A stretch of DNA of 64,000 bases from Minisyncoccota bacterium (GCA_016211945.1 JACRHV010000004.1:263472-327471), one strand, 5' to 3'. Positions 15,391 through 59,457 are shown, counted from the first letter of the stretch. Made by a program: numbers and translations. Notes: generated by a model from the sequence alone, not told the origin.

Positions 15391-16323
15391 ATGAACATTT
15401 CCTGTTCGTTCAAAGTTGCGATCGTTGGTCTTGGGAAGGTTGGGATGTCGGCGGCCTACGCAATGATGCTCGAAGGCACACCAACCGATATTATTCTCCT
15501 TGCACGTGATAAAGAGAAAGCGATTGGGGAAAAACTTGACCTCGAGCATGCACTTCCGTTTTTAGATTTTGTGAATATTATTGCAACAGATGATTATGCC
15601 GATCTCGCGGGTACCCATCTCGTGATTGTTACTGCGGGCGCCGCGCAAAAGCCTGGGGAAACTCGATTGGATTTGTGTGCAAATAACCGCGCCATCATGG
15701 CAGAGATCTTACCTAAAATTAACGCAGCTGCACCGGATGCAATTATCCTTATGATTGCAAATCCCGTCGATGTGTTGGTGCAGTTTGCCAACAGTATTTT
15801 GCCAAATGCAAAAGGTCGAATCTTTGGATCCGGCACCATGCTCGATACCGCTCGATTCCGTTTCCATCTTGCAGAAACGCTCCATGTGAATCCGAGAAGT
15901 GTCCATGCATACGTTTTGGGTGAACACGGCGACAGTTCTTTCCCCGTCTATGCAAATGCAACAGTTGGCGGACAAAAACTCATGGAGTTCCCCGGTATGA
16001 GCGCAGAAATTATTCAAGATGCGTACAAGAAAGCGCGCGAAGCCGCATATAACATTATCAAAGCAAAAGGTGCAACGTACTACGCGATCGGTGTGGTAGC
16101 AACCAAGATTATGGAGGCAGTGTTCTCTGATGCAAAAACTGTTCTCCCACTTTCTGTTCCACTGGATAATTACTATGGCCTTTCTGGAGTTTCATTGAGT
16201 GTTCCATGTATTTTGGGCGCGCGTGGCATTGAACAAGTGCTTCACCTTGATCTTTCACAAGAAGAGCAGGCAAATTTGAAAAAGTCAGCAGAAACACTTG
16301 CGCAATACAATAAAGAGTTATGA
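15391..16323 (+). CDS. ldh: L-lactate dehydrogenase
   Basis: KVAIVGLGKVGMSAAYAM Rossmann segment, AGAAQKPGETRLDL, IANPVDVL, GSGTMLDTARFRF, VLGEHGDS. Start placed at the ATG at 15391 rather than the upstream TTG. The stop overlaps the next gene (ATGA). Confidence 0.85.
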   Translation: MNISCSFKVAIVGLGKVGMSAAYAMMLEGTPTDIILLARDKEKAIGEKLDLEHALPFLDFVNIIATDDYADLAGTHLVIVTAGAAQKPGETRLDLCANNRAIMAEILPKINAAAPDAIILMIANPVDVLVQFANSILPNAKGRIFGSGTMLDTARFRFHLAETLHVNPRSVHAYVLGEHGDSSFPVYANATVGGQKLMEFPGMSAEIIQDAYKKAREAAYNIIKAKGATYYAIGVVATKIMEAVFSDAKTVLPLSVPLDNYYGLSGVSLSVPCILGARGIEQVLHLDLSQEEQANLKKSAETLAQYNKEL

Positions 16324-17168
16324 ACATTCTCAAAGCAAACGGACAACTCGAGCCTTTTGACGAACACAAGTTCCGCCGATCCTTACGACATGCACACATC
16401 TCAAAAGAGTTCCACGATCAAGTTGTTACATCAGTAACACAGTCACTCTATGAAGGTATTCCGACGCGTGAAATTTACAAACATGTGTATGACTTTTTAA
16501 ACGGAAATTTTCCCATGGGCTCTTGTACATATAATCTTAAGCAGGCGATTATGGAGCTTGGCCCCAGTGGGTATCCATTTGAACGATACGTTGGGAAGTT
16601 ACTGGAGCGGCAGGGATATCAAGTACGGGTTGGGCAGATGATTCGAGGAACATGTGTTGCACACGAGATTGACGTCCTCGCAGAAAAAGACCACGAGCAT
16701 TTTATGGTTGAGTGCAAGTTCCACAACGAACGTGGATTAAAATCTGATGTAAAGGTTGCGCTCTATGTATGGGCGCGATATCAAGATATTTTACAATCTT
16801 GGCTTGCCAAGGAGCCGGAGGAAGAAAAAGAAAAGTTGCACCAAGCTTGGCTGGTAACCAACACAAAGTTCAGCGAGGATGCGCTCCAGTACGGCCAATG
16901 CGTTGGGATGAAGATGGTGGGATGGAGCTATCCAGAAAAGGGAAATTTGCAGGAGTTGATTGAAAAGACCTGCCTTCATCCTATTACGAGTTTATCTTCT
17001 TTGGGTACTTCGCAAAAACAATATCTGTTGTCGCAAGACGTGGTGATTGCGACTGATCTGGAAACACGACAGGACGTTGTGGAAAATCTTCACTTGCCTT
17101 CTGAAACATTGACAGCATTACACAAAGAGCTTGAGATGTTAAAAACGTGTGTGTTGAGGGAAGAATAA
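16320..17168 (+). CDS. ATP-cone domain fused to an Mrr-like PD-(D/E)xK restriction-endonuclease-fold domain
   Basis: N-terminal ILKANGQLEPFDEHKFRRSL...TREIYKHVYDFL matches an ATP-cone. The following region has D...E.K catalytic-like residues (HEIDVLAEKD...FMVECKF). Translationally coupled to ldh. Confidence 0.55.
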   Translation: MNILKANGQLEPFDEHKFRRSLRHAHISKEFHDQVVTSVTQSLYEGIPTREIYKHVYDFLNGNFPMGSCTYNLKQAIMELGPSGYPFERYVGKLLERQGYQVRVGQMIRGTCVAHEIDVLAEKDHEHFMVECKFHNERGLKSDVKVALYVWARYQDILQSWLAKEPEEEKEKLHQAWLVTNTKFSEDALQYGQCVGMKMVGWSYPEKGNLQELIEKTCLHPITSLSSLGTSQKQYLLSQDVVIATDLETRQDVVENLHLPSETLTALHKELEMLKTCVLREE

Positions 17169-19772: not shown

Positions 19773-20798
19773 ATGGATAAAAATGAGATCGACAAAATGA
19801 ATCCTGGCGCTCCAGGAATACAAAAACTTCTGGCAATACTAAACAAAGAAATAGCGCTACCAAAGGGTAGAATTCTTACATTCCATGCAGGTGAAAATAT
19901 GGACGATCTTTCTGTTTACAATCCATCCCCCATTGAGGTTGATGGAGAAACATTTCTATTGGCTCGTGTCGAAAAGAAAAGCTCTGAAAATGGATCCATC
20001 GTTTTGCTTTTTGCGAAAAATGAATACGATGAGTGGTACGTTGTTGAAGATGTACCGGCTCTACATAACATACAAGATCCCTTTTACTGCGGAGTCATTG
20101 ATGGCCTTCATGTTATTGGTTGGGTACAAACACACGAAGAGGTTGGATTCTCTCATTTAGCCTACAGAACTGTTTTTTACCGATTCGAAAATTCTATTTC
20201 TGAACTCAATGATGAGGCTTCTCATTCAATACCTCCTTTTGTAGTCGGTCCGGAGAATATGAAAGGTATTAGGCTCATTCAAAGAGCAAATGGTCGAATT
20301 GGAGTATTCACTAGACCCCAAGGAACATTTGGTGGACGAGGAAAAGTTGGTTATTTTGAGATTGAGAATCTTGACCAATTAGAAAAAAGTCTCGTAGAGT
20401 ATGTCAAGATTGCAGATCCTCATACCCTCATCGCTAATCTATTTATGGAGCGGCCTAAAGGCGAAGATGAGTGGGGTGGCGTCAACGAACTACGAAATAG
20501 GCCTGATGGGAGAATTAATGTTTTGGGACATATCGCCGATTTTGAACCTTATGGTATTAAAAAAAGCTACTATCCCATCACATTTATTTTTGATCCGGAA
20601 ACTGGATCGATATGTGATTTAAAAATAATTACCACCGCAGGACAGTTTCCTCTGGTTGAAACAAAAAAACCTGACTTGGGAGAAGTTTTATATAGCGGTG
20701 GGTTGGTATATTTGGGTAATGGTAAGGTTCGCCTCTATGTAGGAATTGGAGACATAGAAACAGGTTCTATAGACATAGAAGATCCCTTTTTGAAATAA
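19773..20798 (+). CDS. hypothetical protein, predicted beta-propeller (DUF1861/GH43-GH130-like fold)
   Basis: 341 aa with repeated blade-like segments (YNPSPIEVDGETFLLARV, DPFYCGVIDGLHVIGWV, GRIGVFTRPQG, GRINVLGHIADF). Assignment by resemblance only. Confidence 0.3.
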   Translation: MDKNEIDKMNPGAPGIQKLLAILNKEIALPKGRILTFHAGENMDDLSVYNPSPIEVDGETFLLARVEKKSSENGSIVLLFAKNEYDEWYVVEDVPALHNIQDPFYCGVIDGLHVIGWVQTHEEVGFSHLAYRTVFYRFENSISELNDEASHSIPPFVVGPENMKGIRLIQRANGRIGVFTRPQGTFGGRGKVGYFEIENLDQLEKSLVEYVKIADPHTLIANLFMERPKGEDEWGGVNELRNRPDGRINVLGHIADFEPYGIKKSYYPITFIFDPETGSICDLKIITTAGQFPLVETKKPDLGEVLYSGGLVYLGNGKVRLYVGIGDIETGSIDIEDPFLK

Positions 20799-20904
20799 AG
20801 AGAAACATCTTCTTCTGTAGCGGATTGCATCAATCGTCTCATAATGAGATAATTGAACATATAAATGAGATGAAAGGAGGCCTTCCAAAGGTTGTAGATA
20901 TTTG

Positions 20905-21075
20905 AGCGTGTGGCCCAACATCTGTTGGGATACGAGGAATGGGTCTTTTACTCTGTAAAAGAAATCGGGCTTTTCTTTAATGAAAAGTATCTGCGGACAC
21001 CCATCGGTTGCTACAGTCGTAAGTTTTGTTTTAAATCTTTTCCGTAAGGAAAAGGACAGAGAACAGAAACACGTA
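20905..21075 (+). ncRNA. Putative glmS ribozyme (GlcN6P-responsive) in the glmS 5' UTR
   Basis: Begins AGCGUG. Conserved core ...GGGAUACGAGGAAUGGGUC (ACGAGGA as in UUGACGAGGA). GCGGACACCCAUCGG corresponds to GGCGGAUGCCUCCCGG, with AUGGGU/ACCCAU replacing GGAGG/CCUCC as a compensatory pair. ACAGUCGUAAG matches ACAGCCGUAAG. It lies 70 nt upstream of the glmS start. Confidence 0.6.
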
Positions 21076-21143
21076 GCCAAACCTTTATTCTTCATTTTTT
21101 TTCTTTTCTTTAACAGTGTTGAGCATTTTCACAAGGAGGTACT

Positions 21144-22910
21144 ATGTGTGGAGTTTTTGGATACATTGGTCATCGATCTAACGCAGCGTTATTGGTGTTT
21201 GAAGGATTAAAACGGTTGGAGTATCGCGGATATGATAGCTGGGGAGTTGTGGTTGTTGGTCGTGGAAAAATTTACGTGAAAAAGAAAACGGGGAAAATAG
21301 GTGGGGCAACAGTTGATGAGCTTCCACCTGGATCATTGGCAATCGGGCACACTCGATGGGCGACGCACGGCGGTGTGACGGAAAAAAACGCGCACCCACA
21401 CCTTGACTGTACACACACCATCGCAGTGATTCATAACGGCATTGTGGAAAATTACGAAAGCATACAAGCAGAATTGGTACACGCCGGACATCGTTTTGTG
21501 TCAGAAACTGATACCGAAATTATTGCTCATTTGTTGGAGTTTTATGCGCATAACATGTCATTTATTGAAGCGTTTGTGAAAACATTTCAGCGATTGGAGG
21601 GGCTCAATGCTATTGTAGCGATACATCATAAAGAAAGAGTTCTCGTCGCTGCAAAAAAGGGTTCTCCTCTTGTCATTGGTTTTGGAAAAAAAGAAAACTT
21701 TATTGCAAGTGATCCTTCCGCGCTTTTACCACATACAAAGGAAGTGTACTTTCTTGAGGATGGGCAGATGGCAGTTCTCCGTGATGCATCTGTTTCAGTG
21801 ATGGAGAGTGCGTCACAAAAGGTTGTGAAGTTTTCTACGCAAATTTTGGACTGGGATGTTTCTCAAACTCATAAAGGTGAGTTCCACCATTTCATGCTGA
21901 AAGAAATATATGAACAACCTCAAGTTGTTTTGGGTATTGCAGGAAGTGGAGGTGAGGAGGTTAAAAGGATTGTATCTTTGATACGGAAAACAAAAGATCT
22001 GTATTTTGTTGGATGCGGCTCAGCGTCTTACGCATGTTTAGCCGGAGCGTATCTTTTTTCAAAAATTGCTCAGAGGCGGGCGCATGCGATTGCTGGGAGT
22101 GAGTTTTTGTATCACCTGGATTTTATCAATACAAAAAGTGTTGTGGTGGCTTTATCCCAATCTGGAGAAACCATTGACACCTTAGAGTCTGTGTCTTATG
22201 CAAAAAGAAAGGGCGCGAAGATTGTGGCTTTGGTTAATGTCCTCGGATCCTCTCTGTATCGAGTAGCAGACGCGAAGATTTTGATAGGCGCTGGACCAGA
22301 AAAAGCGGTTGCATCAACAAAAGCTTTTATTGGCAAAATCGCGCATCTTATTTTGTTGGCGTACGCATTGGATAAACGAGTGAAGGAGGGGCAGGAATTG
22401 TTGCGTAAGTCCGCGGAGGTTATACGAGAGGTGTTGGCGGAAAAAAACAGCGATCGAATAAAGAAATTGGCGCATCGTATTTGCGGAGTGAACCACATTT
22501 TTATTCTTGGCAGAGGTCTTTCATATTCTGCAAGTTTAGAGTGTGCGATGAAGATCAAGGAAATCAGTTATATTCATGCCGAGGGTTTGGCGGCTGGAGA
22601 GCTGAAGCACGGCACCCTCGCCTTGGTTGAAAAGGGGACTCCGTGTATTGTCCTTCTCCCCAACGATGAGACGTATGCCGCAACATTGGCGGGAGCTATG
22701 GAGATCAAAGCGCGAGGCGGATATATCATTGGAATTTCACCAAAAAAAGAAGGTGTTTTTGATGAGTATTTGCCTATTGCCGATGTTGGAGATGCCAGCA
22801 TGATCCCCATGGTTGTTACCGGTCAACTCCTCGCATATTATTTGGCACTGGAACGAGGTCTTGACCCGGATATGCCGAGGAATTTGGCAAAGAGTGTGAC
22901 GGTGAGGTAG
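21144..22910 (+). CDS. glmS: glutamine--fructose-6-phosphate aminotransferase
   Basis: N-terminal MCGVFGYIG (Ntn Cys2), two SIS domains, 588 aa; preceded by AAGGAGGTACT. Confidence 0.9.
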   Translation: MCGVFGYIGHRSNAALLVFEGLKRLEYRGYDSWGVVVVGRGKIYVKKKTGKIGGATVDELPPGSLAIGHTRWATHGGVTEKNAHPHLDCTHTIAVIHNGIVENYESIQAELVHAGHRFVSETDTEIIAHLLEFYAHNMSFIEAFVKTFQRLEGLNAIVAIHHKERVLVAAKKGSPLVIGFGKKENFIASDPSALLPHTKEVYFLEDGQMAVLRDASVSVMESASQKVVKFSTQILDWDVSQTHKGEFHHFMLKEIYEQPQVVLGIAGSGGEEVKRIVSLIRKTKDLYFVGCGSASYACLAGAYLFSKIAQRRAHAIAGSEFLYHLDFINTKSVVVALSQSGETIDTLESVSYAKRKGAKIVALVNVLGSSLYRVADAKILIGAGPEKAVASTKAFIGKIAHLILLAYALDKRVKEGQELLRKSAEVIREVLAEKNSDRIKKLAHRICGVNHIFILGRGLSYSASLECAMKIKEISYIHAEGLAAGELKHGTLALVEKGTPCIVLLPNDETYAATLAGAMEIKARGGYIIGISPKKEGVFDEYLPIADVGDASMIPMVVTGQLLAYYLALERGLDPDMPRNLAKSVTVR

Positions 22911-22925
22911 AAAGAGTTAAAAATT

Positions 22926-23243
22926 TTAACCAATTATAATCATCTTTTCATCAACTGCTTTGTCCAATACATCTCGACCGAATTTTCGGGCAATGAGCAT
23001 TGCATCCCCAGTGAGTACTCTATTTGCTTGGGGGCTTTTTATAACAACACCTTGTTTTGCCTGTTCAAACGCCTCCGAAAAAAGCCTCCAACGATCATTA
23101 AAATTTTCCTTATTGATGGGTAGCACTGGCTCAATTACTCGAGTATCTATTGAATGTCTTATTCTAAGAGTTCCATTTCCAACTTGACCTAGCCCGACTC
23201 CATCAAGTTCGTGGCGTGTACCATCTGCTTCATTAGTTGACAT
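22926..23243 (-). CDS. hypothetical protein (about 105 aa)
   Basis: Track ORF 22926..23276. The internal ATG (MSTNEADG...) is preceded by AAGGAG and preferred. Convergent with glmS. Confidence 0.3.
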   Translation of the reverse strand: MSTNEADGTRHELDGVGLGQVGNGTLRIRHSIDTRVIEPVLPINKENFNDRWRLFSEAFEQAKQGVVIKSPQANRVLTGDAMLIARKFGRDVLDKAVDEKMIIIG

Positions 23244-23320
23244 AGTAAACTCCTTACTTTTTTTAGATGAAGACATTGTATCACCTAAGTGGAATTAAGT
23301 GTGATAAAAAGCGCTTTTTG

Positions 23321-23394
23321 TGACCCCATCCGGATTTGAACCGGAGATCTTCAGGATGAGAACCTGACGTCCTAGGCCGCTAGACGATGGGGCC
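23321..23394 (-). tRNA. tRNA-Glu (anticodon CUC)
   Basis: Hand-folded cloverleaf of 74 nt. Acceptor GGCCCCA/UGGGGUC, D-stem GUCU/GGAC, anticodon stem UCAGG/CCUGA with loop UUCUCAU, T-arm UCCGG-UUCAAAU-CCGGA, discriminator A. CCA not encoded. Confidence 0.85.
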
Positions 23395-23473
23395 AATACC
23401 AAACTTCTCTGGAATTATACACGAAATCTAGTTACTTTCCATCGCTCCACATCAGGAAAATCGCAGTTTGTTT

Positions 23474-57867: not shown

Positions 57868-59457
57868 ATGTCATTTTTTGGAACAATTTCCGGTTTATTT
57901 GCGCAAAAACAACAAACGGGAGGACAAAAGCAGCAGGTGCAAAAACAACCTGTAAGAAAAATTCCTCAGCCGCAACCACTAAAACCAGTACAGCAAAAAC
58001 CACCGCAACAGCCACAACGTCCTCAACCAATCAAACCGATGGTTATGGATGACACACAAATTCGTGAAGCTCAAGCACGTGCACGTGAGATTATTGTTGA
58101 AGCAAAAGACGAGGCACTCGCAATTCGTGAAAAGGCTGAACGTGATGCACGAGTAATTAGACAGGAAATCAGTGATAAAGAACGGTCGCTCGATCAAAAA
58201 ATAGCAACGCTTGATGCACGATTGAAGGTGCTTGATGAACGCGACGAAGAAACTCAAAAGAGAAAAGCGCAGGTCGATAAGACACAGCTAGAGCTTGAAG
58301 ATCTTCGTCAACAACTACTCAAGAAACTCGAACATGTCGCAGGACTCACTCAGGTACAAGCAAAACAACAAGTCCTTGAGGGAGTTGAGCGAAATCTATC
58401 AAAAGATGTTGCTCAACTCATCCAGGCCGCAGAAAGCAAGGCAAAAGAAGAGGCGGACGACAAAGCCCGTGAAATTATTATTGACGCGATGAAACATGGA
58501 GCAACGGATTACGTTGCCGAGTACACCGTTTCTGTGGTCAAAATTCCAGACGACGAGGTAAAAGGAAAGATCATTGGAAAAGATGGTCGAAACATTCGGT
58601 CGTTTGAACTTGAAACTGGTGTTGATGTTGATCTCGACGATCAACCGGGTCAAGTACGTATCTCATCATTCGATCCAATTCGACGTGAGATTGCACGCAT
58701 TTCGCTTGAAAGACTCGTTAAAGACGGACGTATCCAGCCTACGCGCATTGAAGAAACTGTAAAGAAAGTCGCTTCCGAGATTGAAAAGATTACGTACGAG
58801 GAAGGGAAGAAACTCTGTCATGCGGTTGGCGTATACAATCTGCCCGCAGACCTCATGCAGATTCTCGGCCGCTTTAAGTATCGATTCTCCTACGGGCAAA
58901 ATCTGATTGCACATACGTTAGAAGAAACCAAGATTGGTATTGCGCTGGCACAGGAAGTTGGAGCCAATGTTGAGGTAGTAAAACTTGGATGTCTCCTCCA
59001 TGACATTGGAAAAGTTGTCACGGAAGAAGAGGGAAGTCATGTTGAGGTTGGCGTAAATCTTCTGAAGAAATATCGTATTCCACAGGTTGTTATTGATTGT
59101 GTGGAACAACATCATGAGGACGTCCCCTTTACCTCGAATGAGGCGGTCCTTGTTTATGTTGCGGACGCAATTTCCGGTGCAAGACCAGGAGCGCGATATG
59201 AAAATTATGAGGAATATGTGAAACGTCTTACAAACTTGGAGACTATCGCGAAAAGTTATGATGCGGTAAAAGAGGCCTATGCTATTCAAGCAGGAAGGGA
59301 AGTTCGCGTTATCTTGAATCCACAACATTCAACAGATGATGACACGATCGTACTCTCCCATAAAATTAAGGAGCGCGTTCAAAAGGAAATGACGTACCCG
59401 GGAACTGTAACCGTTACTGTCATTCGAGAAACACGTGGAATCGACATCGCAAAATAA
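57868..59457 (+). CDS. rny: ribonuclease Y
   Basis: KH domain (KGKIIGKDGRNIRSFE) and HD domain (LLHDIGK..., HHED). N-terminal hydrophobic start followed by a Q/P-rich low-complexity stretch and coiled coil. Confidence 0.85.
   Translation: MSFFGTISGLFAQKQQTGGQKQQVQKQPVRKIPQPQPLKPVQQKPPQQPQRPQPIKPMVMDDTQIREAQARAREIIVEAKDEALAIREKAERDARVIRQEISDKERSLDQKIATLDARLKVLDERDEETQKRKAQVDKTQLELEDLRQQLLKKLEHVAGLTQVQAKQQVLEGVERNLSKDVAQLIQAAESKAKEEADDKAREIIIDAMKHGATDYVAEYTVSVVKIPDDEVKGKIIGKDGRNIRSFELETGVDVDLDDQPGQVRISSFDPIRREIARISLERLVKDGRIQPTRIEETVKKVASEIEKITYEEGKKLCHAVGVYNLPADLMQILGRFKYRFSYGQNLIAHTLEETKIGIALAQEVGANVEVVKLGCLLHDIGKVVTEEEGSHVEVGVNLLKKYRIPQVVIDCVEQHHEDVPFTSNEAVLVYVADAISGARPGARYENYEEYVKRLTNLETIAKSYDAVKEAYAIQAGREVRVILNPQHSTDDDTIVLSHKIKERVQKEMTYPGTVTVTVIRETRGIDIAK

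Follow-up and report, generated by a model that had tools for sequence, protein, structure and literature searches.

Analysis of a 64,000-nucleotide stretch of Minisyncoccota DNA (the window, by which we mean this entire stretch throughout) confirmed that positions 20905-21077 (+), in the 5′ leader of glmS, correspond to a glmS ribozyme, which is a member of its family by every sequence-level criterion that could be tested and resembles it far beyond chance. We put the probability at roughly 88% that the element is a GlcN6P-responsive glmS ribozyme of a structural sub-type belonging to the Candidate Phyla Radiation (CPR). Finding such an element is routine (an ordinary Rfam run picks it up), and GlcN6P feedback on glmS is textbook biology. 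The element places a glmS ribozyme in the CPR, with its nearest non-CPR relatives in Chloroflexota, which fits the sister relationship proposed for these groups, and the sub-type would have hairpins in each of the two loops of the catalytic double pseudoknot together with a naturally covarying P2.2 pair. A full-text search covering 8 million papers returned no mention of the glmS ribozyme in connection with CPR/Patescibacteria.

Identification of the ribozyme upstream of glmS

A scan of the whole window with Rfam 15 returned four matches, three tRNAs and the glmS ribozyme family RF00234, the last at 20894-21080 (+) over model positions 1-167. This match scored 56.9 bits, above the gathering score of 37 bits, with an E-value of 1.7e-10 calculated for the 64-kb window and 4227 families, so that the Infernal run bore out the original prediction of a glmS ribozyme candidate at this site. 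A permissive rescan restricted to the gap upstream of glmS gave RF00234 an E-value of 1.5e-12 and yielded no credible family besides it. The gap, which had been described as 345 nt long, is exactly that length between the stop of the upstream DUF1861 gene at 20798 and the glmS ATG at 21144, and the ribozyme ends 66 nt upstream of this ATG, on the same strand (+). All of the strings quoted from it were located: AGCG at 20905, GGGAUACGAGGAAUGGGUC at 20927, UCUGCGGACACCCAUCGGUUG at 20990, CUACAGUCGUAAG at 21011 and CCGUAAGG at 21042. The 3′ edge had been set slightly short, at 21075; the actual edge is 21077, the end of pseudoknot P3.1.

The downstream gene had been taken for glmS, in agreement with its match to TIGR01135 (625.8 bits). 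The encoded GlmS (21144-22910) matches NCBI MBI5151391.1 exactly; that entry comes from a Candidatus Pacebacteria MAG, and NCBI assigns Pacebacteria to Minisyncoccota, the current name for CPR/Patescibacteria. The proteins nearest to this GlmS belong to Patescibacteria, Woesebacteria and Gottesmanbacteria (60-69% identity) and, outside the CPR, to Chloroflexota (45-47% identity). The MFE fold of the leader was non-native, and its stability did not significantly exceed that of shuffles (z −1.59); such a result is expected for a pseudoknotted RNA, for which MFE is uninformative.

The minus strand also contains an ORF (20688-21095, 135 aa), and the locus could in principle be a protein gene whose similarity to a structured RNA is incidental. 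A single automated annotation, that of the Logan assembly, includes this ORF (L028 147-554). However, it lacks any Pfam or NCBIfam match, forms a singleton cluster found in Logan only, and overlaps the DUF1861 gene at the latter's 3′ end; the flanking NCBI proteins MBI5151390.1 and MBI5151391.1 are numbered consecutively, so that NCBI annotates no protein at this position. The RNA match, with its E-value of 1.7e-10, moreover recurs upstream of glmS in other loci. We find a protein gene here scarcely credible. The ORF runs antisense to the ribozyme along its entire length and is almost certainly a spurious gene prediction on top of a structured RNA.

Anatomy of the catalytic core and peripheral domain

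The features of the leader are collected in Table 1, with core residues numbered according to Andreasson et al. 2020 (PMC7125110) and the Rfam alignment.

Table 1. Predicted ribozyme elements and associated gene features in the window
Feature	Position	Strand	Basis and remarks
Predicted cleavage dinucleotide A(-1)/G1	20905-20906	+	Scissile phosphate lies between the two; aligned to the RF00234 invariant A/GCG; position per PMC7125110
P2.2 5′ strand, C2 G3 U4 G5 (U6 bulged) G7	20907-20912	+	Partner CUGCG 20991-20995
P1 hairpin	20913-20930	+	Stem 20913-19/20924-30, loop AUCU 20920-23; Rfam alignment, RNAalifold of six CPR sequences, covariation
Core junction UACGAGGA	20931-20938	+	Includes P2.1 5′ strand CGA at 20933-35; U at position 26, usually G
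P2 5′ strand AUGGGU	20939-20944	+	Complement of ACCCAU 20999-21004; P2 pairs covarying 5/5
Extra hairpin a (CUUUUAC-UCU-GUAAAAG)	20945-20961	+	Between P2 5′ strand and P2.1 3′ strand; −5.6 kcal/mol, z −8.7 vs shuffles
P2.1 3′ strand UCG (U43 C44 G45)	20965-20967	+	Sole UCG of the P2 loop; cofactor-pocket role per PMC7125110
Extra hairpin b (CUUUUC-UUUAAU-GAAAAG)	20970-20987	+	In the loop between P2.1 and P2.2 3′ strands; −6.6 kcal/mol, z −4.8 vs shuffles
P2.2 3′ strand C52 U53 G54 C55 G56, then active-site G57	20991-20996	+	GUAUCUGCGGA common to six CPR members
P2 3′ strand ACCCAU	20999-21004	+	Rfam alignment, covariation
P3 hairpin (CGGUU/AGUCG)	21005-21019	+	Strands 21005-09/21015-19; loop GCUAC 21010-14 is the P3.1 5′ strand
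P4/P4.1 domain	21023-21070	+	P4 21023-29/21063-70; P4.1 21037-43/21048-54; GNRA loop GUAA 21044-47
P3.1 3′ strand GUAGC, ribozyme 3′ end	21073-21077	+	Complement of GCUAC 21010-14; 4/4 pairs covary
Shine-Dalgarno AAGGAGG of glmS	21133-21139	+	From sequence, 4 nt before ATG
glmS	21144-22910	+	Glutamine--fructose-6-phosphate transaminase, 588 aa; NF001484 642 bits, TIGR01135 626 bits

The catalytic core of the glmS ribozyme is a P2.2-P2-P2.1 double pseudoknot, in which P2.1 joins residues 28-30 to 43-45 (PMC7125110). In the window RNA, P2.2 consists of C20907-G20995, G20908-C20994, U20909•G20993, G20910•U20992 and G20912-C20991, with U20911 bulged, and P2.1 pairs CGA (20933-35) with UCG (20965-67); the motif AAUCG(G/A) is kept in all members. 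The base of P1 is a G20913•A20930 mismatch, the conserved G three nt from the P1 3′ end is present, and ACGAGG is invariant in all 11 of the aligned ribozymes. Single mutants of the Thermoanaerobacter tengcongensis core at G1, C2, G3, A27, C28, G56 or G57 do not cleave (PMC7125110), and all seven of these positions are wild type in the window. Every pair of P2.2, P2 and P2.1 can form, although the figure of 100% of cells paired comes from an alignment hand-curated to the structure and is thus inflated. Altogether, eight helices are formable in the window RNA: P1, P2, P2.1, P2.2, P3, P3.1, P4 and P4.1. In the peripheral domain, the internal loop IL4 is UUUAAAU / GACAGAGA, with the purine-rich AAA / ACAGAG present; the roles of IL4 and the GNRA tetraloop have been described (PMC11602151).

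The original prediction had also pointed to AUGGGU/ACCCAU as a compensatory replacement for a pseudoknot pairing. The pairing is real and compensatory: the two strands are perfect complements, and three of the five P2 pairs differ from the Rfam consensus GGAGG/CCUCC in both bases. The pseudoknot label is imprecise, as this helix is P2, a nested element of the Rfam structure. The pseudoknot helices are P2.1, P2.2 and P3.1, and their preservation strengthens the conclusion that the RNA is a glmS ribozyme.

Folding with RNAfold and RNAalifold also showed that, in the members with U26, the P2.2 5′ strand CGUGU (20907-20911) can pair with AUACG (20930-20934, A25-G29), lengthening P1 by five pairs. 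Canonical ribozymes have an analogous alternative pairing, CGCC/GGUG. The CGUGU/AUACG pairing may be a transient co-transcriptional fold; covariation cannot test it, because its bases are invariant in the CPR set.

Covariation of the paired elements

The core alignment (10 distinct ribozymes, 27 pairs) was assembled by hand from elements verified in natural sequences; full-length MAFFT misplaced insertions and 3′ tails, and automatic helix picking gave inconsistent registers. Standard pairs were present in 97.8% of its 270 cells, whereas shuffles gave 76% and slid registers 28-43%; the 97.8% is inflated because the alignment was fitted to the structure. Changes on both sides were found at 16 of the 27 pairs, a number that 0 of 500 shuffles reached and that slid registers did not come close to.

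Both-side changes affected all five pairs of P2, with 100% pairing across the 10 ribozymes, and all four pairs of P3.1, for which the variants were GCUAC/GUAGC, CCAA/UUGG, GUUGA/UCAAC, GUUGUC/GACAAC and GCAC/GUGC. Three of five pairs covaried in P3, and likewise in P1. In P2.2, the Chloroflexota ribozymes have C-G at pair 5-53 and the CPR ones have G•U; this pair is the less conserved one (Andreasson et al.), and the CPR sub-type provides a natural example of change at it. P2.1 was invariant across the alignment and is uninformative for covariation because it never varies. Neither P2.1 nor P2.2 showed significant mutual information in an earlier study, being too conserved (Barrick & Breaker 2007).

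As an independent check, unsupervised RNAalifold was applied to the six CPR members as aligned by plain MAFFT; it recovered the two extra hairpins along with P1, P2, P3, P4 and P4.1, with 46 pairs of which 28 were compensatory. Among the CPR members, P2, P3, P3.1, P4, P4.1 and both extra hairpins covary.

Departures from the consensus core and two extra hairpins

The P2.2 helix of the window contains U4•G54 and G5•U53 where the consensus has two C-G pairs, and its bulged residue 6 is U. G7-C52 is kept, 8-25 is G•A, and a hairpin interrupts the four-nucleotide loop 47-50. Position 26 is U in the window and in the related loci L076, L085 and L088 (described below) and G in L033 and L082. Previous analysis of the core found that G26 forms the base triple 26•7-52, that loop residue 50 contacts the 8-25 pair, that mutations of C4-G54, the third pair from the cleavage site, are strongly detrimental, and that the rate is sensitive to the three P2.2 pairs adjoining the cleavage site and to the 26•7-52 triple (PMC7125110). 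Activity or ligand response could therefore differ in the window RNA on account of U4•G54, U26, the interrupted loop 47-50 and the G•A at 8-25.

These departures raise the possibility that the RNA is a true glmS ribozyme homologue that has drifted, so that it is slower, constitutive (ligand-free) or altered in its cofactor or ion needs, and is not a GlcN6P switch. The changes C4→U, C5→G/G53→U, G26→U and G8•A25 and the hairpin in the 47-50 loop are what such drift might leave, and they lie near rate-relevant sites, namely the P2.2 pairs by the cleavage site and the 26•7-52 triple. Only a small number of active-site mutations make the ribozyme independent of GlcN6P (PMC11602151), which also counts in favor of this explanation. 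Nevertheless, the pocket and active-site residues G1, C2, A27, C28, U43-G45, G56 and G57 are unchanged, and the departures are common to six CPR lineages that have diverged to 48-81% identity in GlmS. The departures are also structurally compensated (G5•U53), as purifying selection on a working RNA would give. We consider a drifted ribozyme unlikely and favor a GlcN6P-responsive ribozyme with a lineage-specific core.

The P2 loop comprises 44 nt in the window versus 10 in the consensus, and the extra sequence folds as two hairpins (a and b; Table 1). All CPR members have a hairpin of differing sequence at the hairpin a site. Hairpin b is likewise present in 6/6 CPR members, with unrelated sequences, and it is absent from the Chloroflexota ribozymes, so that it was seen only in the CPR among the loci sampled.

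Inside hairpin b of L076, positions 1365-1375 read AUCGGCGGAGA, which closely resembles the canonical P2.2 3′ strand UCGGCGGAUG and lies 13 nt before the functional UCUGCGGAAA, and in L082, L085 and L088 hairpin b ends in GGCGGGGAG or GCGGCGGGAG. Hairpin b might have arisen by local duplication of the P2.2 3′ strand.

Relatives and phylogenetic distribution

A total of 88 loci were fetched around GlmS relatives (designated by L numbers), and a regex for the invariant core was run over all 88 on both strands. Ribozymes were found upstream of glmS in five further distinct CPR leaders. Three of these scored against RF00234 (L033, 66.6 bits; L076/L077, 44.1 bits; L082, 58.0 bits), and the other two, L085/L086 and L088, were recovered with the invariant-core regex. 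Rfam gave no RF00234 report for L085 even at E<=1, probably because of its 74-nt hairpin b and long P1; the invisibility of this ribozyme to Rfam suggests that the glmS ribozyme family is under-counted in CPR genomes.

The L085 element (1056-1301, also in L086) contains all of the invariant core motifs, a P3.1 of the form GUUGUC/GACAAC, a GCAA-capped P4.1 and a 31-nt P1, and lies ~200 nt before glmS.

The six CPR ribozymes, that of the window included, have several motifs in common: AGCGUGUGG at the 5′ end, GGGA(U/G)ACGAGGAA (GGGAAUACGAGGAA in L085), AAUCG(G/A), and GUAUCUGCGGA(A/C)ACC. They also share the G•A at the P1 base, both extra hairpins (with unrelated sequences) and the U4•G54/G5•U53 form of P2.2. 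Outside the CPR, Chloroflexota carry canonical glmS ribozymes at 80-97 bits in L003, L004, L015, L025 and L037 and one of 48.6 bits, with extra stems, in L007.

About 17 distinct related glmS loci among the 88 had no ribozyme (L001, L029, L030-32, L034-36, L058, L060, L074, L075, L078, L079/80, L081, L084 and L087), and in these there were usually only 6-70 nt before glmS. The two closest GlmS relatives of the window protein, L001 and L029 (68-69% identity), are in this group. The element is thus dispensable in the lineage, and its patchy retention (six leaders with it, ~17 without) implies that reduced genomes easily drop riboswitch control. In a rough neighbor-joining tree of GlmS, ribozyme-bearing and ribozyme-less genes were interleaved, with L033 near the Chloroflexota group. 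Given the derived RNA features that the CPR ribozymes share, the simplest reading is a single ancestral CPR sub-type followed by repeated loss, as the patchy distribution itself suggests, with the qualification that the sample is small. The CPR have been proposed to be sister to Chloroflexota, having arisen by reductive evolution (Coleman et al. preprint), and an ancestral sub-type with repeated loss fits this proposal.

The same distribution could be taken to mean that the window element is a decaying relic, ancestral but no longer functional and heading for loss, since its closest sampled GlmS relatives lack a ribozyme and its score of 56.9 bits is below the 80-97 bits of the canonical Chloroflexota ribozymes. 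We give this explanation very little weight. All invariant core nucleotides are intact, and all helices, including the three pseudoknot helices, are kept together with the tetraloop through compensatory substitutions; the lower RF00234 score stems from the 44-nt insertion and the sub-type-specific P2.2, not from scattered damage.

In L076/L077, L082/L083, L088 and L084, glmS is followed by a Glucosamine_iso gene (PF01182, NagB/Pgl-like), and murA-cofD is often found upstream. In L087, where no ribozyme precedes it, glmS lies within a cell-wall operon and begins 6 nt after cofD; fusion into an operon may be among the ways in which the leader was lost. A 16S rRNA gene lies divergent from and just upstream of glmS in L030 (185-1845, −) and L031 (360-1826, −), both of CPR type with GlmS 53% identical; compared with the bacterial SSU model, the L030 copy contains an insertion of 159 nt that the L031 copy lacks.

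Comparison with known systems

The window element shares with the canonical glmS ribozyme (RF00234; B. subtilis, B. anthracis and Thermoanaerobacter tengcongensis) its location in the glmS 5′ leader, the A/GCG site, the ACGAGG and GCGG strands, the P2.2-P2-P2.1 double pseudoknot, the P3/P3.1/P4/P4.1 domain, the GNRA loop and the purine-rich IL4. It differs in having U4•G54/G5•U53, U as residue 6, G•A in place of A-U at the P1 base, U26, a short P1, and hairpins of 17 and 18 nt in the P2 loop, and in its host, which is a member of the CPR and not a Firmicute.

The Chloroflexota ribozymes (L003, L004, L015, L025, L037 and L007) have the same architecture and lie upstream of the closest non-CPR GlmS proteins (45-47%). 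In contrast to the window element, they have the canonical GCGCC / UCGGCGG P2.2, a G•U at the P1 base and a 5-nt linker between the P2.1 and P2.2 3′ strands, and they lack hairpin b. L007 resembles the window in having extra hairpins between the P2 5′ and P2.1 3′ strands and the same P3.1, GCUAC/GUAGC, which shows that the P2-P2.1 junction tolerates hairpins outside the CPR. The two L007 hairpins are at 2776-2817 and 2861-2905, and this RNA also has a ~53-nt pyrimidine-rich insertion after P3.

Rare glmS ribozyme variants from Deinococcus-Thermus reportedly have additional stems inside the catalytic core. They would represent the same kind of departure in a different phylum. In Enterobacteria, GlcN6P-responsive feedback on glmS is post-transcriptional and is exerted by the trans-acting sRNAs GlmY and GlmZ with the adaptor RapZ and RNase E. 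That system has no sequence or structural relationship to the window element and is not the one present here.

Taken together, the case for a CPR-specific structural sub-type is credible but modest. We lean toward the view that CPR/Patescibacteria have their own subclass of glmS ribozyme, defined by two obligatory hairpins in the double-pseudoknot loops, a rewired P2.2, a G•A at the P1 base and A instead of U at loop position 50, which descends from an ancestor shared by CPR and Chloroflexota, was lost repeatedly during genome reduction and is partly visible to Rfam. If true, this subclass would be a natural 'experiment' in P2.2 covariation and in the tolerance of both pseudoknot loops to insertion.

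Proposed function and genomic context

By analogy with characterized glmS ribozymes, the function of the window element is most likely GlcN6P-dependent self-cleavage at A20905/G20906, followed by decay of the glmS mRNA. Accumulated GlcN6P would bind the preformed P2.1/P2.2 pocket and serve as catalytic cofactor, and the 2′-OH of A20905 would attack the phosphate before G20906. The cut glmS message would carry a 5′-OH and would then be degraded, such that GlmS synthesis would drop, producing negative feedback. In Bacillus subtilis, cleaved glmS mRNA is degraded by RNase J1 (Collins 2007). RNase J was not found among the ORFs scanned within the 64-kb window. An RNase Y homologue with RNase_Y_N, KH and HD domains is encoded at 57868-59457 (+) of the window, which points to mRNA decay machinery of the Gram-positive type in this CPR genome.

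A promoter and terminator scan of 20500-23400 found no sites above the level of shuffles and zero in the 106 nt 5′ of the ribozyme. By eye, a possible extended −10 promoter is present at 20825-20853, consisting of TTGCAT (20825-30), a 17-nt spacer and TGaGATAAT (20845-53), ~45-50 nt upstream of the cleavage site. L088 contains a perfect TTGACA-18 nt-TATAAT at ~866-895, likewise ~45-50 nt upstream of the cleavage site. If these leader promoters are real, the 5′ cleavage fragment would be just ~40-45 nt long.

Elsewhere in the window, positions 16320-17168 (+) encode a 282-aa protein that joins an N-terminal ATP-cone to an Mrr_cat restriction-endonuclease-like domain, an unusual combination.
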